A stretch of DNA of 36,276 nucleotides from Candidatus Micrarchaeia archaeon (GCA_038874215.1 JAVZCV010000011.1:1-36276); one strand, 5' to 3'. Shown: positions 4,968 to 25,982, counted from the first letter of the stretch. Notes: generated by a model not told the origin, from the letters alone. Numbers and translations: made by a program.

Positions 4968-5836
4968 TGGTTGGAGGGAGATTTGAAAGAGGGATAGAGT
5001 TATTTTTGAAAGTAGTTGCATTTACGTCCGCTCTGTCCGTCTTTCTTATTCTTCTTTTCCTTTTCGTTGAGGCATACAGGATAGTTTTTTTCGTTAATCC
5101 TTTTGATATGCTGCTGGGTTTGGAGTGGCAACCTACTTCAGAAAATCCTCGTTACGGTATGCTGCCGCTCATCGCTGGTTCTCTGCTAGTTACTGTGTGC
5201 GCAATGCTCATATCAGTTCCGCTTTCTATTGCGACTGCTATATACCTATCAGAAATTGCCCCTTGGTGGCTTGGCGAGATGCTGAAACCAATAATAGAGA
5301 TTCTTGCTGGAATTCCGTCCGTTGTTATAGGCTTTTTTGCTCTTGTCGTGGTTGCGCCTGCCATATCAAGCATTTTCGGAGTTTCAAGCGGGCTCACTGC
5401 GCTTAACGGTGCGCTCATGCTTGCGATAATGGCAGTTCCTACTATAGAGAGCATAGCGGAAGATGGGATAAGGGCTGTTCCGAAGGGTTTGAGAGAGGCA
5501 TCTCTCGCTCTCGGTGCTACTAAATGGCAGACGATAAGGAATGTTGTGCTTCCATGCGCCATGCCGTGCATAACCACAGGGGTGCTTCTCGGGTTTGGGA
5601 GGGTGATAGGGGAGACGATGGTTGTGCTGATGGCAACGGGGAATGCGGCAATGATGCCAACAAGTCTTTTAGACCCTGTTAGGACTATGACTGCAACGAT
5701 AGCTGCTGAGATGGGCGAGGTTGCGCGCGGAACTCCGCACTACCATTCTTTATTCATGCTTGGGTTTTTGCTTTTCGTAATAACGCTTGCGATAAACACG
5801 ATGGGCAACATGATTTCGCGAAGGTGGGGAAGATGA
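4964..5836 (+). CDS. pstC: Phosphate ABC transporter permease PstC
   Basis: [23 protein letters not shown] and RVIGETM motifs; operon position. Confidence 0.95.
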   Translation: MMVGGRFERGIELFLKVVAFTSALSVFLILLFLFVEAYRIVFFVNPFDMLLGLEWQPTSENPRYGMLPLIAGSLLVTVCAMLISVPLSIATAIYLSEIAPWWLGEMLKPIIEILAGIPSVVIGFFALVVVAPAISSIFGVSSGLTALNGALMLAIMAVPTIESIAEDGIRAVPKGLREASLALGATKWQTIRNVVLPCAMPCITTGVLLGFGRVIGETMVVLMATGNAAMMPTSLLDPVRTMTATIAAEMGEVARGTPHYHSLFMLGFLLFVITLAINTMGNMISRRWGR

Positions 5837-6687: not shown

Positions 6688-7439
6688 ACATCGCGATAAA
6701 AACTGAAAACCTTTCCATGTGGTACGGGGAGAAGCAAGCACTGAAAAACATAAACATGGAGATAGAGAAAAATAGAATCACGGCGCTGATAGGCCCGAGC
6801 GGTTGCGGTAAAACATCTTTTTTGAAGTGCATAAACAGAATGAGCGATTTGATACCGAATTGCAGGGTTGAGGGAAAGGTGTTCGTTGATGGCGAGAATG
6901 TGTATGGGGGTGGGGTTGATGTTGTAAAACTGAGGAGAAAGGTTGGCATGGTTTTCCAGATACCGAACCCATTCCCGAAATCAATATACGATAATGTCGC
7001 ATACGGGCCGAGAATACACGGGATTAAGGACAAGAAGGTTTTGGATGGGATAGTTGAGAGAAGTCTTCGGGAGGCGGCGCTCTGGGACGAAGTAAAAGGC
7101 GATTTGAAAAAATCTGCGTTAGATCTCTCAGGGGGGCAGAAACAGAGGCTGTGCATAGCGCGGGCTCTTGCTGTTGAGCCGAACATACTGCTCATGGACG
7201 AGCCGTGCTCTGCCCTTGACCCCATAGCAACATCAAAAATAGAGGAGCTGATAGTTGAGTTGAGCAGGAGATACACTGTCGTAATAGTTACACATAATAT
7301 ACAGCAGGCTGCAAGGATATCAAACTTCATGGGTTTCTTCTACATGGGTGAGTTAGTAGAATACGGCGAGACGACGCAAATGTTGAAAAAGCCCAAGCAG
7401 GAGCTCACAGAGAATTATCTTACTGGTAGGTTTGGGTAG
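6681..7439 (+). CDS. pstB: Phosphate ABC transporter ATP-binding protein PstB
   Basis: [36 protein letters not shown] and YLTGRFG C-terminus. Confidence 0.97.
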
Positions 7440-7447
7440 GTGGGATT

Positions 7448-8110
7448 ATGATGTCAAGAAAGTTGTTTGACAATGAGGTTGCGGGGATAAAGGATGAGAT
7501 AAAGAAAACTGCGGAGTTCGTTTCTACTGAAATAGAAAGAGCGGTAGATGCGGTTGAGAATTGGGATACTGAATTAGCAAAGGAGATAATAGAGAGGGAC
7601 GAGTTTGCCGATTCAGAATTCATAAAAGGCCAGGAAGTATGCGCAAAGCTTATAGCGAAGTATCAACCACTTTCTACGGACTTAAGGTTCATAGAGGCCG
7701 TAATCTCAGTTCTGGCAAACTTGGAGCGAACAGCTGATTATGCGGTTGATATCGCGCGCGTCCTTACATATTACAAGGAAAAACAGTTTATTACCAAAGA
7801 AAGTATCGGGATTATGAGAGAAATGCAGAAGAAGGGCTGTGAGGCTTTAGTAAAGGCTGTTGATGCTTTTGTGGAAGAGAATATTGAAAAAACGAAGGAA
7901 GTGCATGAGCTTGAAAGGAAGAGCGACGAGCTGTACGCACATATGTTCGCTGTTCTTGAAGAGAGAATAAAGAAAAAGCCCGAAGCCTCTTACACGGCTT
8001 TCAGCGAAATTCTAATCGCAAGAGCGCTTGAGAGAGTAGGGGACAGGGCAGTCAACATAGCAAATAGGACGGCATACCTGATTACAGGAGATGCTAAATA
8101 CCTGAGATAA
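7448..8110 (+). CDS. phoU: Phosphate signalling/uptake regulator PhoU
   Basis: Two PhoU repeats (LERTADYA, LERVGDRA) and YQPLSTDLR; follows pstB. Confidence 0.93.
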   Translation: MMSRKLFDNEVAGIKDEIKKTAEFVSTEIERAVDAVENWDTELAKEIIERDEFADSEFIKGQEVCAKLIAKYQPLSTDLRFIEAVISVLANLERTADYAVDIARVLTYYKEKQFITKESIGIMREMQKKGCEALVKAVDAFVEENIEKTKEVHELERKSDELYAHMFAVLEERIKKKPEASYTAFSEILIARALERVGDRAVNIANRTAYLITGDAKYLR

Positions 8111-8111
8111 A

Positions 8112-8858
8112 TCAGTGTGCCTCAAAAAGAAGCTTGAACGCAAGCATAAGGATTAAGCCGATTATGAAGAATAGGAAGGCGGTTAGTGAGCGCTTTATAT
8201 CGTGCTCCCTATGTAGCTCTGGGATTAGGTCTGAGCTTGCAATGTATATGAAGCCTCCTGCTGTGAAAGGGAGGAGGAAAAGAGTAAAGCCTTCAACTCC
8301 TGCTGATAGATAATAGCCGAAAAGAGCGCCTATGATGGCAGTAAGCGCGCTTAGGAGATTGAAGGAAAGCGCCCTGAATTTTGTGAAGCCGCCGTATACA
8401 AGAACAGCAAAGTCTCCGAGCTCCTGCGGAACCTCGTGCACAACTACAAGGAAGGTTGTTATAATTCCAAGCTGAACGCTTGTAACATATGCAACGCCTA
8501 TAACGAGGCCGTCTATAAAATTGTGGAGGCCGTCGCCTATGAGGTTGAGGTATGTGAATGCATGCACATCACACTTGCCTTCATGGCAGTGCCTCCACCT
8601 AAGAATCCGCTCAAGGATGAAGAAAAGGATGAAGCCCGTAAGAAGATAGATAAAAACAAGCGTTGCGCCTGCTTTTTCAAGGGCTTCGGGAAGCATGTGG
8701 AAGAATGAACCGCCAAGAAGCGCACCCGCAGAGAAAGCAACCATTACGAAAATGATCCCATTTATGAGGTCCTCTTTCACGTGAAGAGTCAAAATACCTA
8801 CTAACGAGACGATTGAAACGATTATGCTACTTACCACCACGAGTAGGAGTTCATTCAT
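8112..8858 (-). CDS. ZIP family divalent metal transporter
   Basis: HNFIDG and HEVPQELGD metal-binding motifs, His-rich loop HCHEGKCDVH, about 8 TM helices. Confidence 0.92.
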   Translation of the reverse strand: MNELLLVVVSSIIVSIVSLVGILTLHVKEDLINGIIFVMVAFSAGALLGGSFFHMLPEALEKAGATLVFIYLLTGFILFFILERILRWRHCHEGKCDVHAFTYLNLIGDGLHNFIDGLVIGVAYVTSVQLGIITTFLVVVHEVPQELGDFAVLVYGGFTKFRALSFNLLSALTAIIGALFGYYLSAGVEGFTLFLLPFTAGGFIYIASSDLIPELHREHDIKRSLTAFLFFIIGLILMLAFKLLFEAH

Positions 8859-8867
8859 TGCATCTCC

Positions 8868-9317
8868 TTACGGTATGAATTCCCCCATATCCTTAACAAC
8901 GTTTAGAATCACGTGGGTATTCGTTTTTTCCACGCCCGCAAGTTTTCTTATGCTTTTTATAAGCCTGCTTAGTTCTGCCCTGCTTTTGCACATTGCAATA
9001 ACAACCGAATCAGTTTCGCCTGTAACATCATAAACTGCAACTACGCCAGCCATGTTTTTTATTTGCTCCTGCACTTTCAGTATATCGCCCCTTATGGATA
9101 TCTCCACCATCGCCATGAATTCATAGCCCATTTTCAGATAGTCTATGTCTGCCACATATCCCTTTATTACTCCTTCTCCCTCAAGCCTCCGCATACGCTG
9201 AAGCAACGTTGCTGGATGCATGCCAAGCTTCTTAGCGAGCTTTCTCGCAGAAAGCCTGCAAGAGCGCCTAAGCTCATGGATTATTGCCGTATCCTTTTCA
9301 TCAAGATTGTTTGCCAT
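8868..9317 (-). CDS. Lrp/AsnC family transcriptional regulator
   Basis: LDEKDTAII...LAKKLG...RMRRLEGEGVIKGY HTH domain and a RAM domain with YDVTGETD; ends 9 bp upstream of the ZIP gene. Confidence 0.93.
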   Translation of the reverse strand: MANNLDEKDTAIIHELRRSCRLSARKLAKKLGMHPATLLQRMRRLEGEGVIKGYVADIDYLKMGYEFMAMVEISIRGDILKVQEQIKNMAGVVAVYDVTGETDSVVIAMCKSRAELSRLIKSIRKLAGVEKTNTHVILNVVKDMGEFIP

Positions 9318-9417: not shown

Positions 9418-10377
9418 CTACCTGTATGCTAACTGCACACCAGATATAATGAATATGAACAGGCAATAAAGGAGGAGGAGTACGATTCCCTCATTCCTGC
9501 CTATAATTTTCCGCGTAGAGAGAATATAAACGACAACAAGATTAACTAGAAGAAGGGAGAGTACGAGCGTCATGAAAACCGCAATGTTCAGCAATGAAGG
9601 GCTGAAAAGCGCGGCAGAGCCAAGCACGAGCGTGAGGTTTGTCATGCAGCTTCCGAAGGCGTTCCCAAGCGCAAGGGATGGACGCTTTTTCCTGAAGCCA
9701 GTAGTTATTACAGCCAGCTCTGGAAGCGAGGTGCCTACAGCAACTATCGTTGCGCCTATGAATGTTTTTGATATTCCTATGGTGTCCGCAACCTTCACGG
9801 AAGAATCAACAACAAGCCCTGCGCTTATTATAACCCCCATTATTCCGATGCAGAAGAGCAGAAAGGCGTGAAGCGCTTCGTGTTTTGTTATGCTTTCTGA
9901 GTTATTGGATTCAATGCCTATTTTCTTTGAGAGTAGGTAGTAAACGTAGAAACTGAATGTTAGAAGGAGCACTATTCCCTCAATGCGACCTATTCCCTCG
10001 CGTAGCAGAAGCAATATGGATATTGCAGAAGTTATTAAGAGTATATTCAAAAGTCGTGGGACTTCTTTGCGTTGTATTGGCACGCCGTACAGAGATGCGC
10101 TTACGCCGAGGATTATGCAGATGTTCGCTATGTTTGAACCGAAGGCGTTTCCTATGGCTATCGCTCCCTCATGGGCAGAAGCAGCGGATATTGAGACGGA
10201 GAGTTCTGGAAGGGTAGTAAAAACAGACACAAAAACAAACCCGACTGCAAGCTCGCTTATGCCGAAGAAACGCGATAGCTTTGTTGCATTTGAGATAACA
10301 AGCTCTGCTGTTTTCCCGAGAACTGCAAGTGATATCAGGAGGGTTAGGAAGTCCCATAATATGGAGGGTAGTGGCAT
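9418..10377 (-). CDS. Ca2+/Na+ (CaCA, YrbG-like) antiporter
   Basis: Two alpha repeats: TTLPEL...GNAFGSNIAN and GTSLPEL...GNAFGSCMTN. Confidence 0.92.
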   Translation of the reverse strand: MPLPSILWDFLTLLISLAVLGKTAELVISNATKLSRFFGISELAVGFVFVSVFTTLPELSVSISAASAHEGAIAIGNAFGSNIANICIILGVSASLYGVPIQRKEVPRLLNILLITSAISILLLLREGIGRIEGIVLLLTFSFYVYYLLSKKIGIESNNSESITKHEALHAFLLFCIGIMGVIISAGLVVDSSVKVADTIGISKTFIGATIVAVGTSLPELAVITTGFRKKRPSLALGNAFGSCMTNLTLVLGSAALFSPSLLNIAVFMTLVLSLLLVNLVVVYILSTRKIIGRNEGIVLLLLYCLFIFIISGVQLAYR

Positions 10378-10412
10378 CTAAATAAAAACGCATGATGGAT
10401 TTAAATTGTTAA

Positions 10413-10733
10413 TCAATCCTGCAACGCATCTTTAAGGTCTTTTTCTGAAATCCCAACACCAGGTATTGCTGAAAGCCTTCTTATCTCCTTTCCATCTACG
10501 AATAAAAGGACTGTCGGCACGCACTCTATTTTGTATTTCTCCCAAAGAGGGTTTTCATCTTCGTCAATAGCAACAAGAAGACCCTCCCAGCTCTCAGATG
10601 AACCGACAGCGCTACGAAATACTGGCAAAAAGCGCATGCAAAATGGGCACCAGTGTGCGAAGAAGAGAACGGCGAGCCTTTTCGCTTTTCTTATTTTTGC
10701 ATTTAGGTCCGCCTCGGAAGATATCTCATCCAT
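10413..10733 (-). CDS. Thioredoxin family protein
   Basis: FFAHWCPFC active site and cis-Pro motif CVPTV. Second ATG (10733) preferred because the first (10754) lies within the TATA run. Confidence 0.88.
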   Translation of the reverse strand: MDEISSEADLNAKIRKAKRLAVLFFAHWCPFCMRFLPVFRSAVGSSESWEGLLVAIDEDENPLWEKYKIECVPTVLLFVDGKEIRRLSAIPGVGISEKDLKDALQD

Positions 10734-10752
10734 GGATGGGAGTTTGGCAAAC

Positions 10753-10763
10753 ATATATATAAA
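10753..10763. promoter_or_regulatory. Putative bidirectional TATA element between thioredoxin and GNAT
   Basis: ATATATATAAA centred at 10758, about 25 bp from both ATG 10733 (-) and ATG 10784 (+). Confidence 0.55.
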
Positions 10764-10783
10764 CCAACCGCCAAGGAGAGAGC

Positions 10784-11233
10784 ATGCGAATCAGAAAATA
10801 CATGAAAACGATGGTTGGGGCAGTGTCGCCACTTTTGTCAGAGGCAACGCAGGGTTGGGAGGAAGAGTGGAGACAGGAGATTTTCAATCTCTATTCCCGA
10901 TATTCCCGCACATTGGGAGAAGCATACGTGGCGGAGGACAAGGGTGAGATAATCGGTACTATTTTTCTTAAGAGATGCGTGCGTGCTCTGGTGATATACT
11001 TTCTTGCTGTAAGCAAAAAACGGAGAGGGGAGGGAATAGGGAAGGCTCTTGTGCGGATGGCTGAGAGAATCGCCGCCCGTGAGAAGAGAATCCTGCGCGT
11101 TGACGTGGAGAATAAATGCAGTAACGAGCGCTTCTATGAAAAACTTGGATTTAGAAAGTGCGGCAGAGTTGAGAATTTTTACATGGAAGGCGATGACCAG
11201 ATTTTCATGTGGAAGAAGCCCGCGGGAAGATAA
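10784..11233 (+). CDS. GNAT family N-acetyltransferase (RimI-like)
   Basis: LAVSKKRRGEGIGKAL acetyl-CoA motif A and NERFYEKLGF motif B. Confidence 0.9.
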   Translation: MRIRKYMKTMVGAVSPLLSEATQGWEEEWRQEIFNLYSRYSRTLGEAYVAEDKGEIIGTIFLKRCVRALVIYFLAVSKKRRGEGIGKALVRMAERIAAREKRILRVDVENKCSNERFYEKLGFRKCGRVENFYMEGDDQIFMWKKPAGR

Positions 11234-12446
11234 AGCCGAGGACGGAATCCATTTTTCGGATTGCTTGAAGCGCATTCTTTGCGTTCCTTTTCCCAAGCTT
11301 TTTTTTCTTCGCAAACCGATCAAGCCTATTTACTAGAGAGCAGAGGGTTTTTATCGCCCGTGGGATGTCAAAATCGTTGTTTATGTGTGCGCTGAATTCT
11401 TTCATCGCATTTGCTATGATATTATCTGCTTCATAATTTTCAGATGAGAAAATGTTTTGTGCAAGGGTTGGGATAAGCCGCTTGCACTTGGCAAGCTCGC
11501 GTGCTGTTGCACGCAAACCGCTGAATGTGAAGTTTAGCCTTCTCCTGTAATGCTGCGTAAGGAAATATGCACGTATGGCATCGTAGCCATAGCCCATTCT
11601 GCGCAGGTCTCTAACAGTATATATGTTGCCGAGCGATTTGCTCATCTTCCTGCCATATACTATGAGGTGGCGCACGTGCATCCAGTATCTGGCGGGCATT
11701 CTTCCAGTTGCACATCTTGTCTGCGCAATTTCGTTTTCGTGGTGCGCAAATATGTTGTCAACCCCACCCACATGAATATCAAATGGTGCTCCGAGATATC
11801 GTATGCTCATCGCACTGCATTCTATATGCCAACCAGGCCTTCCTCTGCCCAACTTTGTGTCCCAGAAAACATCTCCGTCGCTCTTTCGCCAGCCTTTCCA
11901 GAGAGCGAAATCCCCTGCTTCTTGTGGCGAATAATCGTCTTTTAAAATTCGTTTATTTAGCTTGTTTTTGAACCTTGCATGCGAGAGCTTCCCATAGCCA
12001 CGGAAGCGTGAAACATCAAAAAACACATTGCTTTTTTCATCTGCGTATGCAAACTTTTTTCGCAGAAGTTTTCTTATCATGCTCACCATGTATGGAATGT
12101 TTTCTGTTGCGCGCGGGTAGTGGTCTGCGGGCAGTATGTTAAGGGCGCGTGCATATTTCATGAATATTCTCTCGTTTTTTCGCGCGATTCTCATCATTAT
12201 GCGCATTCTGCCGCGAGCCTCATGGACTGCCTTGTCCTCAACATCTGTTATATTCATGATGTGCCGAACCCTGTACCCATTGTATAGAAGCACCCGCTTA
12301 ACAACATCTTCAAAAACATAGGTGCGGAAGTTCCCTATGTGCGGTTCTGAATAAACGCTCGGGCCGCACGTGTAAATCCGAACCTCGTTCTTTCTAATCG
12401 GCACGAATCTCCTTTTCCTTCTTTTTAGAGTATCGTAGATGAGCAT
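11205..12446 (-). CDS. cysS: Cysteine--tRNA ligase-like protein lacking the C-terminal anticodon-binding domain
   Basis: YTCGPSVY, HIGN, GRPGWHIECSAM, HHENEIAQ and KMSKSLGN motifs; the protein ends just after the DALR helical bundle (DSVLGF) at 413 aa. Confidence 0.85.
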   Translation of the reverse strand: MLIYDTLKRRKRRFVPIRKNEVRIYTCGPSVYSEPHIGNFRTYVFEDVVKRVLLYNGYRVRHIMNITDVEDKAVHEARGRMRIMMRIARKNERIFMKYARALNILPADHYPRATENIPYMVSMIRKLLRKKFAYADEKSNVFFDVSRFRGYGKLSHARFKNKLNKRILKDDYSPQEAGDFALWKGWRKSDGDVFWDTKLGRGRPGWHIECSAMSIRYLGAPFDIHVGGVDNIFAHHENEIAQTRCATGRMPARYWMHVRHLIVYGRKMSKSLGNIYTVRDLRRMGYGYDAIRAYFLTQHYRRRLNFTFSGLRATARELAKCKRLIPTLAQNIFSSENYEADNIIANAMKEFSAHINNDFDIPRAIKTLCSLVNRLDRFAKKKKLGKRNAKNALQAIRKMDSVLGFIFPRASST

Positions 12447-13193
12447 TCATTTCGCCTGCTGTAAGCTTCCAAAGCTAAAAACGCCAATAACGCTCGTTAT
12501 TATGATGAAGAGAAATATCACTGTGGCATCGAAAATAAGCGGAAAGCTGCCCGAACCGAGCAGAATAACTCGGAGAGCATCAACGCCATATGTAAGCGGG
12601 TTGATTGAGCTTATGGGTTTTAGAAACGATGGCAGGTTTGAGATGTTGAAGAGGGCACCACTGAAAAAAAACATTGGCCACATGACGAAGTTTACAACCA
12701 AAGAAAAACCTTCTTGGCTTTTCATGTTCGCGCCTATTATTAGCCCCAACCCAGTCATAGCGAATGCTATCATGAAGAGAAACACTAGAGAGAGCAGGAA
12801 AGCGCTTGGTGAAATCGGAATGACGAAAACGGCACCTATGAATAGAAGAAAAAGTGCATGGAGCATTGCGTCTGTAACTCCTCCCAAAACTTTCCCGAAA
12901 AATATGCTGCTCCTTGAAACAGGGGCCACAAGGACCTCTTTTAGAAAGTCAAGCCTCCTGTCCCATATTATGTATAGGCCATAGAACATTGAGACGAATA
13001 GAACGGACATGCAAAGTATGCCTGGGAATATGAATGCACGATAATCGCCAGATATACTTTCTCCCATTCCGCTACCGAATATAAACAGCCAAAGAAGCGG
13101 TGATAGTATTGAAGAGGCTATACGCTCTTTCTCCCTCAGGAAAACCTTCGCCTCCCTTAACCATATGGCATGGACTGCGTATAACTCAACCAC
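12447..13193 (-). CDS. ABC-2 type exporter permease (DrrB-like)
   Basis: DRRLDFLKEVLVAPVSR, FFSGALF and NPLTYGVDALR motifs; 6 TM helices. Start placed at GTG 13193 behind a GGTG RBS; the ORF track starts at 13241. Confidence 0.9.
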   Translation of the reverse strand: MVELYAVHAIWLREAKVFLREKERIASSILSPLLWLFIFGSGMGESISGDYRAFIFPGILCMSVLFVSMFYGLYIIWDRRLDFLKEVLVAPVSRSSIFFGKVLGGVTDAMLHALFLLFIGAVFVIPISPSAFLLSLVFLFMIAFAMTGLGLIIGANMKSQEGFSLVVNFVMWPMFFFSGALFNISNLPSFLKPISSINPLTYGVDALRVILLGSGSFPLIFDATVIFLFIIITSVIGVFSFGSLQQAK

Positions 13194-14166
13194 GCGAATC
13201 ACCGAAACGGAAAACACGCTCTGCCCACGAGCCCTCCGCATCGCCTTCCCTTATCTCTTTGCCTGTGAAACGAAGGAAAACGTCGTTTAGAGTTACCGCT
13301 CTCACTTCAACAGATTCAAGCTTCCCGCACGCACCAAGGAGTTCCTGCAGGTTTGCGGCGGCGTTCTCAATTATCAGTTCAGCGTACTCCTCGCCATCGT
13401 AGAATTTCTTTTCAAACTTTTTTACAAACGGTAAAGCCGCTATGCTCCGCTCATCAACATGGCCTTTCAGCCTAACGATGTCTTCACCAACCGTCTTCTT
13501 TAGCTCGTTGGCCTTCCCAAGTGCGATTAATTTTCCATTGTCTATTATGCCTACACGGTCGCAGAGCATATCTGCCTCCTCCATGTAGTGAGTTGTCAGA
13601 ACAATTGTTGTTCCATTCTCGCCTGCAAGTCTCTTTATGTAGTCCCATATATTCTTCCTGCTTGCGGGATCAAGCCCAAGAGTCGGTTCATCCAAGAATA
13701 GAATTTCGGGGCTGTGCATGAGACCGCGTGCAAGCTCAAGCCGCCTTCTCATTCCACCCGAGTATGTGCTAACTCTGTCGTCCTGCCGTTCCTTCAGACC
13801 CACAAGCGAAAGCATCTCTTCAACCCTCTCTTCTATGAGGGTGCGGGGCATGCCGTAAAGCATCCCATGTAGTTCAAGATTTTCCCTGCCCGTCAGCATG
13901 TCATCAACACTCGGCTCCTGAAATACTATGCCTATCCTCTCACGAACTTTCCGTGGTGCTTTGCATATATCAAAGCCCGCTACTGTAGCAGTTCCTGAGG
14001 TTGGCTTTATGAGTGTGCAGAGCATGCTTATGAGTGTTGTCTTACCCGCACCGTTCGGTCCTAGAAGCCCGAAAACCTCGCCGCTTTCTATTTCCAATGA
14101 GAGGCTATCAACGGCTGTTGTATTGCCGTATCGTTTAGTGAGGTTTTCAATGTTTATGATTGGCAT
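13186..14166 (-). CDS. ABC exporter ATP-binding protein (DrrA-like)
   Basis: GPNGAGKTT, YSGGMRRR, LFLDEPTLGLDP, TTHYMEEA and C-terminal TLNDVFL motifs. Confidence 0.93.
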   Translation of the reverse strand: MPIINIENLTKRYGNTTAVDSLSLEIESGEVFGLLGPNGAGKTTLISMLCTLIKPTSGTATVAGFDICKAPRKVRERIGIVFQEPSVDDMLTGRENLELHGMLYGMPRTLIEERVEEMLSLVGLKERQDDRVSTYSGGMRRRLELARGLMHSPEILFLDEPTLGLDPASRKNIWDYIKRLAGENGTTIVLTTHYMEEADMLCDRVGIIDNGKLIALGKANELKKTVGEDIVRLKGHVDERSIAALPFVKKFEKKFYDGEEYAELIIENAAANLQELLGACGKLESVEVRAVTLNDVFLRFTGKEIREGDAEGSWAERVFRFGDSRG

Positions 14167-14376: not shown

Positions 14377-15327
14377 GTGGGAATGTGTAGTGTCTGCAAT
14401 ACGCGCCCGCTTGTTGCATTGTTAGTTATAGCATTGCTATTAACACTTGTGGAAGCAGCGAAGTATGAGAAGCCGTATCAGCCGGGGAAGGAAACATGCG
14501 CTAACGTGCTGGAAAGAGTATGCTACCAAAAGATGCACCATCCGATTGTTGTGGGGAATGAGAAAAAGGGCGAGTTCTCAACCCTGATCAATGCAAAGGC
14601 AGGGGAAAACATATGGAGAAACGTGTGCATGAGAGGAGAGATAATCGTCCAGAGCGTAGTGAGAGAAACTTCTCGCTGTCCTGATGGAGAAGAAATCGTT
14701 GAAATCTGCTTCAGACACAACAATAAGGAGATAATCCAGAGATATACTGGGGAGTGCTATGTGCCGCCCGCCCCGCCAGCGCCAGAGACCGAGCCAGGGA
14801 CCGAACCGCAGCCAGAGCCCGAGCCAGAACCTTATGAGAGGCTGTATTATCCGTGGGAAGTGTATATCTGCACAGAAAACCTAAAACTCTCATGCGAGGC
14901 GCATGCAAAACCACAGATGTTAAGAATAAAGGAGCTTGTGATGAGCAATCCGAACAGCAGGATGGACTTTTCGGGCTATGGCATGCAAATGCACCTCTAC
15001 CACAATTACACTTTTGTATCAAGAGATAGCGGTGGCTATTACTACGAATACAGAATATTCTACACATATGATATGAACGGTCAGGAAAAAGATTGGGCTG
15101 GAATTCTCTACAACGTCACATACAACGCAATGGGAGTTGAAAGTTTGGAGCAACACTATGGATACAGCTGGGGTGAAGTGCCAGATACGAGCACGCTTGG
15201 CCCAAACGGTGTTATAATGGATGTGGTATATCAGCCTGCAGAGGATGAAAGGTGCATGTGCCAGGACTATACGTATAACTCGTACAGAATTTTCGGATGC
15301 GAAGGGGCGTGTTGCAATAGGGGGTAG
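14377..15327 (+). CDS. Secreted cysteine-rich hypothetical protein with a Pro/Glu linker
   Basis: GGGGGTGA RBS before GTG; signal peptide ending in VEA-A; 15 Cys; PPAPPAPETEPGTEPQPEPEPEP linker between two domains. Confidence 0.7.
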   Translation: MGMCSVCNTRPLVALLVIALLLTLVEAAKYEKPYQPGKETCANVLERVCYQKMHHPIVVGNEKKGEFSTLINAKAGENIWRNVCMRGEIIVQSVVRETSRCPDGEEIVEICFRHNNKEIIQRYTGECYVPPAPPAPETEPGTEPQPEPEPEPYERLYYPWEVYICTENLKLSCEAHAKPQMLRIKELVMSNPNSRMDFSGYGMQMHLYHNYTFVSRDSGGYYYEYRIFYTYDMNGQEKDWAGILYNVTYNAMGVESLEQHYGYSWGEVPDTSTLGPNGVIMDVVYQPAEDERCMCQDYTYNSYRIFGCEGACCNRG

Positions 15328-15657: not shown

Positions 15658-15752
15658 TTTTTCACCGCCGCCTGCAAATTGTGTTGTTGTTCCAAAATAT
15701 AAAGGTTGTGTTCGGGGAAACGTATTAATATGCGGGAGTGGTAAATTGCTTT

Positions 15753-17102
15753 ATGGTTCCTAACTCGCAGAATGAAACGGGAGAGACGAAGGAAACGAAG
15801 GTTGAGAAAACTGAGGAGAAGAAGAGCCTGAGATTTCTCTTCGTATCAATTGAGGGACTGATAGGAGACTTAGCGTGGCAAGTGAAGAAGGAAGGCCATG
15901 AGGTTAAGTACTACATTCAAGATAAATCGCAGAAGGATGTCTGCGATGGTTTTGTTGACAAGTGCGATGATTGGAAGGCTCTAAAAGACTGGGCTGATGT
16001 GATAGTTTTTGATGATGTTGGCTTCGGGCAGATAGCAGAGGATTTGCGAAAAGAGGGAAAGGCGGTAGTCGGCGGTTCTGTATATACTGATAGGCTTGAA
16101 AATGAGAGGGATTTCGGGCAGGAGGAGCTGAAAAAGGCGGGCGTGAGCGTTCTCCCGAGCTGGAACTTCACGGATTTTGATGAGGCGATTGATTTTGTGC
16201 AGAAAAACCCGATGCGCTATGTGATAAAGCCGAGCGGGAAGGCGCAGAACGAGAAGGAGCTCGCATTCATAGGGCAGGAGGAGGATGGAAACGACATAAT
16301 CAATGTACTGCAACGCTACAAGAAGAGCTGGGCAAAAAAACTGAATGCATTCCAGCTACAACGGTTTGCGCAGGGGGTTGAGGTTGCAGTCGGCGCATTC
16401 TTCAACGGAAAAGATTTCGTTTATCCGATAAACGTGAATTTTGAGCATAAGAGAATGTTCCCTGGGGATATAGGACCTAATACGGGGGAGATGGGAACTC
16501 TCATGTTCTGGTCTCCGCCGAATACGATATTCAATGAAACTCTTGGTAAGATGAAGGAAGCGCTTGCTGCATCGGGCTATGTTGGATATATAGACGTGAA
16601 CTGCATCGCGAATGCGCGCGGCATATATCCTCTTGAATTCACATCACGCTTTGGCTACCCGACGATAAGCATACAGATGGAGGGGGTTGCAAGCGAGTGG
16701 GGTACATTTCTTTACGGGCTTGCTACGGGGCAGACTCCAGAATTAAAAACGAGGAAGGGATTTCAGATTGGAGTTGTGATAGCGGTTCCTCCATTCCCAT
16801 TTACAGACCCTGCGGCATTCAGGAGGTATTCTGAAGAAGCGATAATAATATTCAAGAAGCCGTCTTTTGAAGGAGTTCATTTGGGGGATGTAAAACTCGT
16901 TGAGGGGGACTGGCGGCTTGCTGGGCAGTCGGGCTACGCTCTCATAATAACAGCATCGGGCTTGACTGTTGATGATGCGAGAAAGCAGGTTTACAAGCGC
17001 GTTGAAAACATATTGATTCCGAATATGTTCTACCGCACCGATATAGGTGAAAGGTGGGTGCGCGATAGCGATATGCTCCACACGTGGGGCTATCTCTACT
17101 GA
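15753..17102 (+). CDS. Phosphoribosylamine--glycine ligase-like (PurD-like) ATP-grasp protein, divergent family
   Basis: LENERDFG, YVIKPSG, EHKRMFPGDIGPNTGEMG, LEFTSRFGYP and YRTDIG match the GARS A/C domains; the canonical N-terminal GxGGREH motif is absent. Start is GTG 15738 or ATG 15753. Confidence 0.75.
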   Translation: MVPNSQNETGETKETKVEKTEEKKSLRFLFVSIEGLIGDLAWQVKKEGHEVKYYIQDKSQKDVCDGFVDKCDDWKALKDWADVIVFDDVGFGQIAEDLRKEGKAVVGGSVYTDRLENERDFGQEELKKAGVSVLPSWNFTDFDEAIDFVQKNPMRYVIKPSGKAQNEKELAFIGQEEDGNDIINVLQRYKKSWAKKLNAFQLQRFAQGVEVAVGAFFNGKDFVYPINVNFEHKRMFPGDIGPNTGEMGTLMFWSPPNTIFNETLGKMKEALAASGYVGYIDVNCIANARGIYPLEFTSRFGYPTISIQMEGVASEWGTFLYGLATGQTPELKTRKGFQIGVVIAVPPFPFTDPAAFRRYSEEAIIIFKKPSFEGVHLGDVKLVEGDWRLAGQSGYALIITASGLTVDDARKQVYKRVENILIPNMFYRTDIGERWVRDSDMLHTWGYLY

Positions 17103-25465: not shown

Positions 25466-25485
25466 GTTATGGAGGTAAAAAGAAG

Positions 25486-25605
25486 CGCCTTGGCCGGGAT
25501 TCGAACCCGGGTCGCCGGCTGTCTGCTCTGGAGCAGCCCAAAGAGCTGCGGTTTCCTTTGAACCTCACGACAGGCCGGAATGCTGGTCCACTACACTACC
25601 AAGGC
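25486..25605 (-). tRNA. tRNA-Asp(GTC) with a 47-nt intron at position 37/38 (25521-25567); CCA not encoded
   Basis: GCCTTGG/CCAAGGC acceptor stem, CCGGC/GCCGG anticodon stem, CCGGG-TTCGAAT-CCCGG T arm. CTGT/GCAG central helix with an ACA bulge. Mature length 73 nt. Confidence 0.93.
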
Positions 25606-25820
25606 ATGTTGGCCATATCCACTAACCAACGCAGTTAGTAATTTGCAATTATGCTTATATAGTTTGTCCAGTCTTTGCGGGCAGAGTTTTGGTAGCGTTT
25701 GCTATTTCTGATAGTCCGTCTGCTTCTCCTGTTGTGCAAGAAAATTGCATGCTACGTGTATGAGTTTGGGGGATATATCTGTAGAACCATTGAGGTGGCA
25801 GATTAACGTATAAATAGAAA

Positions 25821-25915
25821 TCCCGCCAGGGTGATTTGAACACCCAACCTGTCGGTCCCCGCATACATTGGAACAAGCTACAGCCGACCGCTCTGCCAAA
25901 TTGAGCTATGGCGGG
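25821..25915 (-). tRNA. tRNA-Tyr(GTA) with a 21-nt intron at position 37/38 (25857-25877); CCA not encoded
   Basis: CCCGCCA/TGGCGGG acceptor stem (C1-G72, archaeal Tyr identity), GTCGG/CCGAC anticodon stem, GGGTG-TTCAAAT-CACCC T arm. Relaxed BHB with CTGT/GCGG. TATA at about 25939-25946. Confidence 0.93.
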
Positions 25916-25982
25916 ATGATTATATTTATTATCGGATTTTTATATATATTAATCAATCGCCGAATGAATGACGCCCAAAAGA

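Follow-up and report, generated by a model that had tools for sequence, protein, structure and literature searches.

The short cysS locus

We analyzed a contig of 36,276 nucleotides from a Candidatus Micrarchaeia archaeon (JAVZCV010000011.1; this whole stretch of DNA is called the window below) that encodes a cysteinyl-tRNA synthetase (CysRS)-like protein without an anticodon-binding domain (ABD), immediately behind the two genes of an ABC transporter. Judged by its sequence and that of its relatives, the protein is a paralogue of the housekeeping synthetase that has long been associated with this transporter. An earlier reading of the same DNA, made from the sequence alone (the sequence-only reading), had proposed five genes here; open reading frame (ORF) calls place all five at the same coordinates, and the families assigned to them agree with Pfam and NCBIfam.

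The first gene of the unit encodes an ABC transporter ATPase of the DrrA type with a DrrA1-3_C C-terminal domain (13186–14166, minus strand, 326 amino acids (aa)), which scores 121.9 bits on PF00005, 32.5 bits on PF13732 and 363.4 bits on the drrA model TIGR01188 (cut-off 312.45). It is followed on the same strand by a DrrB-like ABC-2 type permease (12447–13241, 264 aa), for which hydropathy segments suggest about six transmembrane helices; the permease scores 130.3 bits on PF01061 (cut-off 26.9) and 205.6 bits on the drrB model TIGR01247, under the cut-off of 223.05. The CysRS-like gene, called short cysS below, comes third (11205–12446, minus strand, 413 aa). Its junction with the permease gene reads AAA TGA ATG, so that the start codon directly follows the permease stop, as the sequence-only reading had noted (12447/12446). 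Because these codons abut, the ATPase, the permease and short cysS are presumably co-transcribed. The transporter combines a DrrA-type ATPase with an ABC-2 membrane subunit and has no substrate-binding protein, a gene for which was not found among the window ORFs scanned; this is the composition of a DrrAB-type exporter, and the pair is predicted to transport outward.

A small GNAT acetyltransferase (10784–11233, plus strand, 149 aa; PF13508 59.5 bits, PF00583 56.4 bits) is convergent with short cysS, and the coordinates bear out the overlap of 29 bp that had been claimed for the two genes. Beyond it lies a thioredoxin with a WCPFC active site (10413–10754, minus strand, 113 aa; PF00085 44.9 bits). 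The AT-rich spacer between these divergent genes (10755–10783) contains TTTATATATA, a candidate archaeal TATA region that may act as a promoter. The true start of the thioredoxin is probably Met8 at 10733; alignments with its homologues begin at residues 7–10. Because of this probable start and the AT-rich spacer, which it shares with the GNAT gene, the thioredoxin is likely a separate transcription unit here rather than part of the operon. The sequence-only reading was right about the presence of the gene next to the unit.

A CysRS catalytic core without the anticodon-binding domain

The window protein scores 324.7 bits on the Pfam model tRNA-synt_1e and 392.8 bits on the cysS model TIGR00435 (cut-off 340), a match that spans only profile positions 1–397 of 466. 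On the MshC model TIGR03447, for which the cut-off is 485.1, it reaches 219.2 bits. The chain stops with the last helix of the helical bundle, at a position equivalent to approximately residue 394 of E. coli CysRS, and every member of the short family stops right after this helix. The C-terminal ABD (PF23493, including R423, R427, D436, R439 and D451) is missing. A PF23493 search of the genome found no separately encoded copy, the only match being in the full-length cysS described below. The zinc ligands and the HIGN and KMSKS motifs are all retained, as is the stop after the helical bundle, in agreement with the sequence-only reading, and W205 is also present. An AlphaFold model of the protein (pLDDT 86, pTM 0.89) superimposes in Foldseek on CysRS structures with TM scores of 0.82–0.89 and on MshC with 0.79–0.81. 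Sequence matches in the PDB likewise run from 250 to 295 bits for CysRS entries and reach 155 bits for MshC. A predicted complex of the short CysRS with the ABC ATPase scored 0.00 against a mark of 0.32, and is evidence neither way.

To compare individual residues, short forms were aligned with 77 full-length CysRS including that of E. coli, whose numbering we use. C28, C209, H234 and W205 are kept in all 55 short forms and E238 in 54 of them, and H-x-G-N and K-M-S-K-S are kept throughout the short family. The idea that HIGN itself marks divergence is not borne out, since 46 of the 47 nearest full-length CysRS also carry H-x-G-N. Outside the ABD, 104 columns are conserved to at least 85% in full-length CysRS and 51 to at least 99%; short forms keep 75 of the former and 44 of the latter. 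Because the catalytic site is intact, the short CysRS almost certainly still makes cysteinyl-adenylate (Cys-AMP). In six members of family f11 (L266–L271), Thr replaces the fourth zinc ligand E238 and Asn occupies position 233, with C28, C209 and H234 kept.

Other conserved positions have changed. T31 is serine in 55/55 short forms, P233 is serine or alanine in 51/55, and K175 is glutamine in 39/55; R168, H206, L155 and N273 are partly altered. G166, with a conservation of 97% among full-length enzymes, is retained in 6/55 short forms and is mostly Asn or Asp in the others. Both G166 and K175, whose conservation in full-length CysRS is 97–100%, are located in the acceptor-facing loop of the CP domain. 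The first of the two aligns with the MSGA residues (164–167) of D. tiedjei CysRS, which the account of that enzyme by Mukai et al. (PMC5389517), in the portion that deals with this loop, ties to recognition of the first acceptor base pair. The same loop carries a motif that is invariant in the short family, DDYYQxEAGDF.

An old family that coexists with full-length CysRS

The 45 best database matches to the window protein (P0002–P0046) are 45–68% identical to it and 384–448 aa long, and none contains PF23493. Of the next 74 matches, 73 are 465–501 aa long and have PF23493; the remaining one, P0083 (486 aa), is not annotated with it. Within the window's own order, 15 of 29 genomes have a complete short copy and 3 more have fragments at contig ends, while 12 sampled genomes of other orders have the full-length gene only. 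A scan of 301 genomes across the class, which took in one genome (G297) on which no result depends, added short forms in two further families, f11 (8 of 23 genomes) and f22 (6 of 50). A search of genome contigs with the short protein returned almost only full-length CysRS from bacteria and other archaea, and these were used as tree material and not for synteny.

Phylogenies separate the short forms cleanly. FastTree places 55 short and 77 full-length rows on either side of one branch with a support of 100, and IQ-TREE (LG+C20) does the same for 36 short and 33 full-length rows with an SH-aLRT value of 98; both trees are unrooted and were built without MshC or CysRS* sequences. A single origin of the short forms is the simplest reading. 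The short protein is 33–41% identical to the resident full-length enzymes of its order, which are of the H-x-G-H type in 27 of 30 cases and group with E. coli, whereas its identity to CysRS of the H-x-G-N type from other archaea and FCB-group bacteria is 41–49%. Because it is closer to the latter, the short CysRS is not a recent local duplicate. Compared over 66 genome pairs, short proteins have a median identity of 46.9% and full-length proteins one of 52.3%. On this comparative evidence the short form is under constraint, not decaying, and its distribution and phylogeny indicate that the short forms are an old family across the class Micrarchaeia. Source names of the members are mostly Micrarchaeia or Micrarchaeota. 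Three short-family clusters bear other labels (P0012, Methanobacteriota; P0013, Hadarchaeum; P0017, Hadarchaeaceae); the first two nest in the crown of the short clade beside the window protein in both trees, as P0017 does in the FastTree phylogeny. These labels may reflect gene transfer or binning error.

In the genome from which the window comes as contig C11 (1.13 Mb in 38 contigs, 91% complete), contig C25 carries a full-length cysS (10243–11640) with an open frame of 478 aa that scores 568.4 bits on TIGR00435 and matches profile positions 1–464. Neither SepRS (best match 36.9 bits, cut-off 380) nor SepCysS (26.7 bits, cut-off 365) was found in this genome. A full-length cysS likewise accompanies the short form in each of the 13 genomes of the order with a short copy and a completeness of 90% or more, and in all five tested genomes of families f11 and f22, which gives 18 of 18 near-complete genomes. 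Because a full-length gene is present in the same genome, short cysS is a paralogue and not the sole CysRS. The sequence-only reading had named a minimal true CysRS as its main alternative, and the gene on C25 removes it. Short cysS is not the only candidate route to Cys-tRNA in its genome, and its neighbours are conserved with it; on both counts the outcome that the sequence-only reading had named as refuting its proposal is not what is seen, and the proposal is supported in part.

Association with an ABC-2 transporter

We compared the flanks of all obtainable short copies with the window proteins, which covered 17 loci of the window's order, 14 loci of other families and one metagenomic lineage (L180/L181). 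Within the order, one locus (L057) runs into a contig edge and is uninformative. In 13 of the other 16, the ATPase, permease and short cysS genes are adjacent and co-directional. In a further locus (L052, genome G012) the order is kept with a 1.6-kb insert before short cysS; this insert holds a Fic/DOC-family gene at 6697–7620 on the plus strand, between the ABC-2 permease and short cysS. In the two remaining loci (L046 in genome G024 and L047 in G022) the ABC pair is not beside short cysS. It persists elsewhere in both genomes, where it is followed by a thioredoxin and a convergent Lrp-type regulator. One genome that is 98% complete (G007) has the ABC pair and the Lrp-type regulator without short cysS.

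In other families, nine of the 14 loci have the co-directional operon; these are all eight of f11 and L264. The other five, all from f22, have a diverged DrrA-like ATPase and a multi-pass membrane protein of 260 aa that are convergent to short cysS. This protein and the window permease share 25% identity (pairwise E value 4e-6), and its match to the ABC-2 profile is weak. The metagenomic lineage has the order short cysS, ATPase, permease. An ABC-2 pair is thus found beside short cysS in 30 of 32 informative lineages (the window itself, 14 of 16 loci of the order, 14 of 14 loci of other families and the metagenomic lineage) in three arrangements. In relatives, orthologues of the ATPase (47–71% identity) lie upstream of short cysS and orthologues of the permease (45–66% identity) adjoin it. 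As a control we examined 77 other cysS loci, nearly all of them full-length and a few cut by contig ends. An ABC-2 permease was found in none of the 77, and ATPase matches occurred in five, all of them weak. The linkage to the ABC-2 pair is the strongest single fact on the function of the short CysRS.

The complete set that the sequence-only reading had grouped together (ABD-less CysRS, ABC exporter, GNAT and thioredoxin) recurs across the whole class, its members to different degrees. A thioredoxin gene of this type is found next to the unit in 11 of 32 lineages, the window among them; in L049 it follows immediately downstream, and in L053–L055, L260, L261 and L267–L270 it diverges from the ATPase gene. 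Thioredoxin orthologues also stand beside the ABC pair alone (L178 and L179). GNAT orthologues are convergent downstream of short cysS in eight of 32 lineages, including L260, L261 and L266. In the window's order they occur in five of 29 genomes, in every case at the short cysS locus, and for this reason we regard the GNAT as a locus-specific accessory rather than a housekeeping gene.

Several other genes occur nearby. The window has an Lrp/AsnC-type regulator (8868–9317, minus strand; PF01037 56.5 bits) 1.1 kb past the thioredoxin, and Lrp-type genes adjoin the unit in L044, L049, L261, L177, L178 and L179. A ZIP zinc transporter is found a few kilobases from the unit (8112–8858, minus strand), and a homologue of 29–31% identity is similarly placed in L045–L047. 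Divergent from the ABC ATPase is an ORF of 316 aa (14377–15327, plus strand) with an N-terminal hydrophobic segment, many cysteines and a linker of the PEPEPEP type; Pfam gave no match for it, and none of the 17 loci of the order contains a homologue. Another gene, 1.5 kb from the ABC ATPase, encodes a diverged PurD-like ATP-grasp protein (15738–17102, plus strand; GARS_A 55 bits). A copy that is 68% identical is found at L260 (2–1063) beside the thioredoxin and ABC unit, and none was seen in the other loci.

The short family is strongly basic

The window protein has an isoelectric point (pI) of 10.33 and a net charge of +43. Among the first set of 55 short forms, pI ranges from 9.29 to 10.45 and net charge from +17 to +45 (median +31), and 15 further short forms from f11, f22 and the metagenome have values of 9.5–10.2 and +23 to +37, so that all 70 members examined are strongly basic. 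The median net charge of full-length CysRS is +0.5 for 30 enzymes of the same order and class and -7 for 47 others. The surplus is spread over the N-terminal Rossmann half (+14 in short forms, +2 in full-length enzymes), the SC-fold (+12 compared with +1.5 to +4) and the helical bundle (+3 compared with -3 to -7). Basic residues have become newly fixed at E. coli positions 167, 171, 258, 300/301 and 371–373, of which position 258 is lysine or arginine in 100% of short forms and 0% of full-length forms. The basic surplus points to a polyanionic partner, and would suit RNA, a membrane surface or a phosphorylated molecule alike. Such an extreme charge fits RNA or another polyanionic substrate better than a neutral amino sugar.

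tRNA genes and short cysS

In eight relatives (L022–L025, L027, L028, L032 and L034) a tRNA-Cys(GCA) gene is found next to full-length cysS; it lies directly upstream on the same strand in seven and approximately 750 bp away in L032. An ARAGORN search of 33 short cysS loci found no abutting tRNA gene, its only calls being tRNA-Asp genes 2.6–4.4 kb away in L045, L046 and L047, and an Rfam search of seven sources identified no RNA family near short cysS. The most contiguous relative (G019) has 36 tRNAs by ARAGORN within 42 Rfam tRNA hits. Its single tRNA-Cys(GCA) stands beside full-length cysS, and no suppressor tRNA was found among these genes.

In the genome of the window, ARAGORN or Rfam (RF00005) detects 16 tRNA genes despite 91% completeness, and most of them have introns; the window contains a tRNA-Asp(GTC) gene with a 47-nt intron (window stretches 25485–25605 and 25820–25916). 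Multi-intron, split or permuted genes may be common among the tRNAs of this lineage. Searches of this kind miss genes that are permuted or rich in introns, and a hidden partner tRNA of the short CysRS is conceivable. On contig C36 of this genome (G000), at approximately 5270–5380, we observed an apparent circularly permuted tRNA-Cys(GCA) gene. Its 3' half (T arm, acceptor 3' strand and U73) lies about 25 nt upstream of its 5' half (acceptor 5' strand, D arm and an anticodon loop reading CTGCAGA), and the precursor folds with acceptor, T, D and anticodon stems paired. At approximately 117.5 kb on contig C1, blastn also matched a tRNA-Cys anticodon arm, around which no tRNA-like halves were apparent by eye.

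Possible functions of the short CysRS

We favor the view, to which we assign a probability of roughly 45%, that the short CysRS is a cysteine-activating ligase that feeds an exported or membrane-side anionic acceptor other than translational tRNA-Cys. In this scheme, cysteine and ATP would be converted to enzyme-bound Cys-AMP at the zinc/HIGN/KMSKS site. The cysteinyl group would then pass to an acceptor outside the translational tRNA-Cys pool, most likely one that is anionic or membrane-proximal, and the DrrAB-like ABC-2 pump would export or flip the product. In some lineages the locus-specific GNAT would acetylate the cysteinyl amine, and the linked thioredoxin would handle the thiol. Taken together, six facts favor an acceptor beyond translational tRNA-Cys and a product that leaves the cytoplasm or the inner leaflet: the ABD has been lost, residues of the acceptor-facing loop have been replaced, a canonical CysRS is always present, the exporter is linked in three arrangements, the GNAT is confined to the locus and the thioredoxin recurs. 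An anionic or membrane-proximal acceptor would also explain the net charge of about +30 and the new arginine and lysine residues around the active site and the CP loop. Cysteine activation, the non-tRNA acceptor, export and the roles of the GNAT and the thioredoxin are inferred parts of this proposal; its observed parts are paralogy, the missing ABD, the retained catalytic residues, coexistence with a full-length CysRS, the basic charge and the gene linkage.

Several observations weigh against it. The family scores as CysRS (392.8 bits) and not as MshC (219 bits), and it keeps most residues conserved in CysRS, including those in the SC-fold and helical-bundle domains, whose known role in CysRS is tRNA binding. 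The basic surplus in the Rossmann half and the SC-fold would suit tighter tRNA binding equally well. Genes that would make an amine acceptor were not found, a PIG-L-type deacetylase being present in two of the 29 genomes of the order, and 24 of 32 lineages lack the GNAT. Short cysS is parted from the ABC pair in G022 and G024. In three f22 loci (L262, L263 and L273) it lies just downstream of the translation gene aEF-2 on the same strand. Finally, gene linkage alone does not tell the cargo of an exporter.

The nearest competitor is an enzyme that is still directed at RNA, which we consider possible though less probable than a ligase with a non-tRNA acceptor. Such an enzyme might be an auxiliary Cys-tRNA synthetase, might serve a dedicated non-canonical tRNA in the manner of CysRS*, or might cysteinylate an RNA base, much as GluQRS glutamylates one. 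As an auxiliary synthetase it may read only U73 and the acceptor stem of tRNA-Cys, its electrostatics making up for the missing ABD. The score above the cysS cut-off, the retention of most CysRS-conserved residues, the strongly basic character of all 70 members with its surplus in the SC-fold and N-terminal half, and the aEF-2 neighbour in f22 are all consistent with this. There is also a precedent, in that the part of PMC5389517 concerned with CysRS* describes an enzyme without an ABD and with CP1 changes that is thought to charge the selC* tRNA-Cys(UCA), and minihelix results given in PMC9976931 indicate that U73 alone confers cysteine identity on minihelices. Against an RNA substrate stand the replacement of G166 and K175 in the acceptor-facing loop, the operon with an exporter, which has no obvious link to translation, and the tRNA surveys, in which no tRNA gene abuts short cysS in 33 loci, no RNA family is found nearby in seven sources, and G019 has one tRNA-Cys(GCA) beside its full-length cysS and no suppressor.

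A more specific form of the ligase proposal, which we regard as unlikely as it stands, is that the short CysRS docks on the anionic inner face of the membrane and, independently of tRNA, directly cysteinylates a phospholipid head group or the precursor of an envelope polymer. The ABC-2 pair would flip the product outward, in lineages that carry the GNAT after N-acetylation. If this were true, host-dependent DPANN archaea would have a surface-displayed thiol, made by an aminoacyl-tRNA synthetase (aaRS)-derived analogue of lipid aminoacylation that works without an aminoacyl-tRNA transferase. It would then be a third biochemical fate of the CysRS scaffold, after tRNA charging and mycothiol synthesis.

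Somewhat less likely again is a module that protects its own cell from a natural inhibitor of CysRS, for example a mimic of cysteinyl-adenylate. Its parts would be an efflux pump of the drug type, a CysRS copy that is insensitive to the inhibitor or acts as a decoy, and, where the GNAT is present, acetylation of an aminoacyl-nucleotide, an activity known from MccE and RimL. The pump is indeed DrrA/DrrB-like, the paralogue always accompanies the housekeeping CysRS, and changes fixed in the family lie beside the zinc ligands (T31S in 55/55 and P233S/A in 51/55); moreover, the GNAT is RimI-like and confined to the short cysS locus. However, a replacement synthetase would be expected to retain its ABD, the linked thioredoxin is left unexplained, and the family is ancient and vertically spread over the class rather than patchy like typical resistance genes. 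We know of no natural CysRS inhibitor, and none surfaced in our literature searches, which were not aimed at inhibitors.

A mycothiol-like route to a low-molecular-weight thiol, in which an MshC orthologue would join cysteine to GlcN-inositol and a GNAT would acetylate the product, is very improbable. The length and domain make-up of the short protein match those of MshC, the Foldseek scores are close (0.79–0.81), and a GNAT and a thioredoxin are at hand. However, the protein falls far short of the MshC cut-off (219.2 bits, with 485.1 needed) and its PDB matches favor CysRS (250–295 bits compared with 155), the window GNAT scores 22.8 bits on the MshD model TIGR03448 (cut-off 163.1), a PIG-L/MshB-type deacetylase (PF02585) is absent from the genome and found in two of 29 genomes of the order, and 24 of 32 lineages have no GNAT. 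Least likely of all is a minimal true CysRS or a decaying gene fragment. The score above the cysS cut-off would suit the former, but the full-length cysS, with neither SepRS nor SepCysS present, refutes it as the sole route. A pseudogene is refuted by the 70 intact members that all stop at the same point, by their conserved catalytic residues and by the constraint on their divergence.

A candidate third family of CysRS paralogues

Table 1 of a 2022 review of aaRS duplications (PMC9437257) lists MshC and CysRS* as the only functions of CysRS paralogues, and in the main texts of the literature searched we found neither a CysRS without an ABD from Micrarchaeia nor its linkage to ABC genes. The short CysRS would therefore be a third family, which is ancient, spread across a class of genome-reduced DPANN archaea, always present in addition to the housekeeping enzyme, uniformly very basic, and tied to an ABC-2 pump in three gene arrangements. 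That genomes of about 1 Mb keep both a pump and another enzyme derived from CysRS implies an important cysteine-related job. The database label "cysteine--tRNA ligase" probably mis-states the role of the short family. If the short CysRS is a ligase for an exported or membrane-side acceptor, the identity of this acceptor would add a new tRNA-independent aaRS chemistry; otherwise, it would show a synthetase at work without anticodon reading.

Comparison with known systems

The closest known relatives are the canonical H-x-G-N CysRS (TIGR00435; PDB 8qhp, 1li5/1u0b), with which the short form shares the fold from the Rossmann domain to the helical bundle (TM scores of 0.82–0.89), 41–49% identity, and the zinc-thiolate pocket, W205, HIGN and KMSKS. 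The short form differs from them in the absence of the ABD, in a net charge of about +30 rather than about zero or negative, and in the replacement of G166, K175, P233 and T31 together with the fixation of new basic residues. It is also encoded with an ABC-2 exporter and never with tRNA-Cys.

MshC, the Cys:GlcN-Ins ligase (TIGR03447; PDB 3c8z, 8hfm), is likewise a CysRS paralogue of about 410 aa that lacks the ABD, and the GNAT partner of some short cysS lineages is a further point of likeness. Unlike MshC, the short form is archaeal, strongly basic and linked to an exporter, has no MshB-type deacetylase and falls below the MshC cut-off.

CysRS* of the Desulfobacterales is encoded in a selC*-selB*-cysS* locus and is described in the relevant portion of PMC5389517 as a second CysRS without an ABD and with a changed CP1 loop. 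It resembles the short form as a natural second CysRS that has lost the ABD and whose CP1 loop, which reads the first acceptor base pair, has changed. Compared by description only, the short form differs in being archaeal, in having no linked tRNA or SelB-like factor and in its link to an ABC-2 pump. No linkage to a selC* tRNA-Cys(UCA) or selB* was identified in the 33 loci searched with ARAGORN or the seven sources searched with Rfam, and the aEF-2 of f22 is not SelB-like.

Two other systems are instructive from outside the CysRS family. GluQRS/YadB, which the portion of PMC9437257 that covers it presents as a truncated GluRS that glutamylates queuosine in tRNA-Asp, is also an aaRS paralogue whose catalytic core survives without an ABD, alongside the full enzyme. 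Its aaRS family is a different one, and the data on the short CysRS give no pointer to an RNA base as acceptor. The neighbourhoods of MetRS paralogues, whose products are predicted to be peptide ligases in the section of PMC2922099 that treats them, offer a parallel in reasoning: in both cases a class I aaRS paralogue has a conserved GNAT neighbourhood, and a tRNA-independent ligase is read from gene context. The amino acid, the partners and the lineage differ, and both are predictions only.

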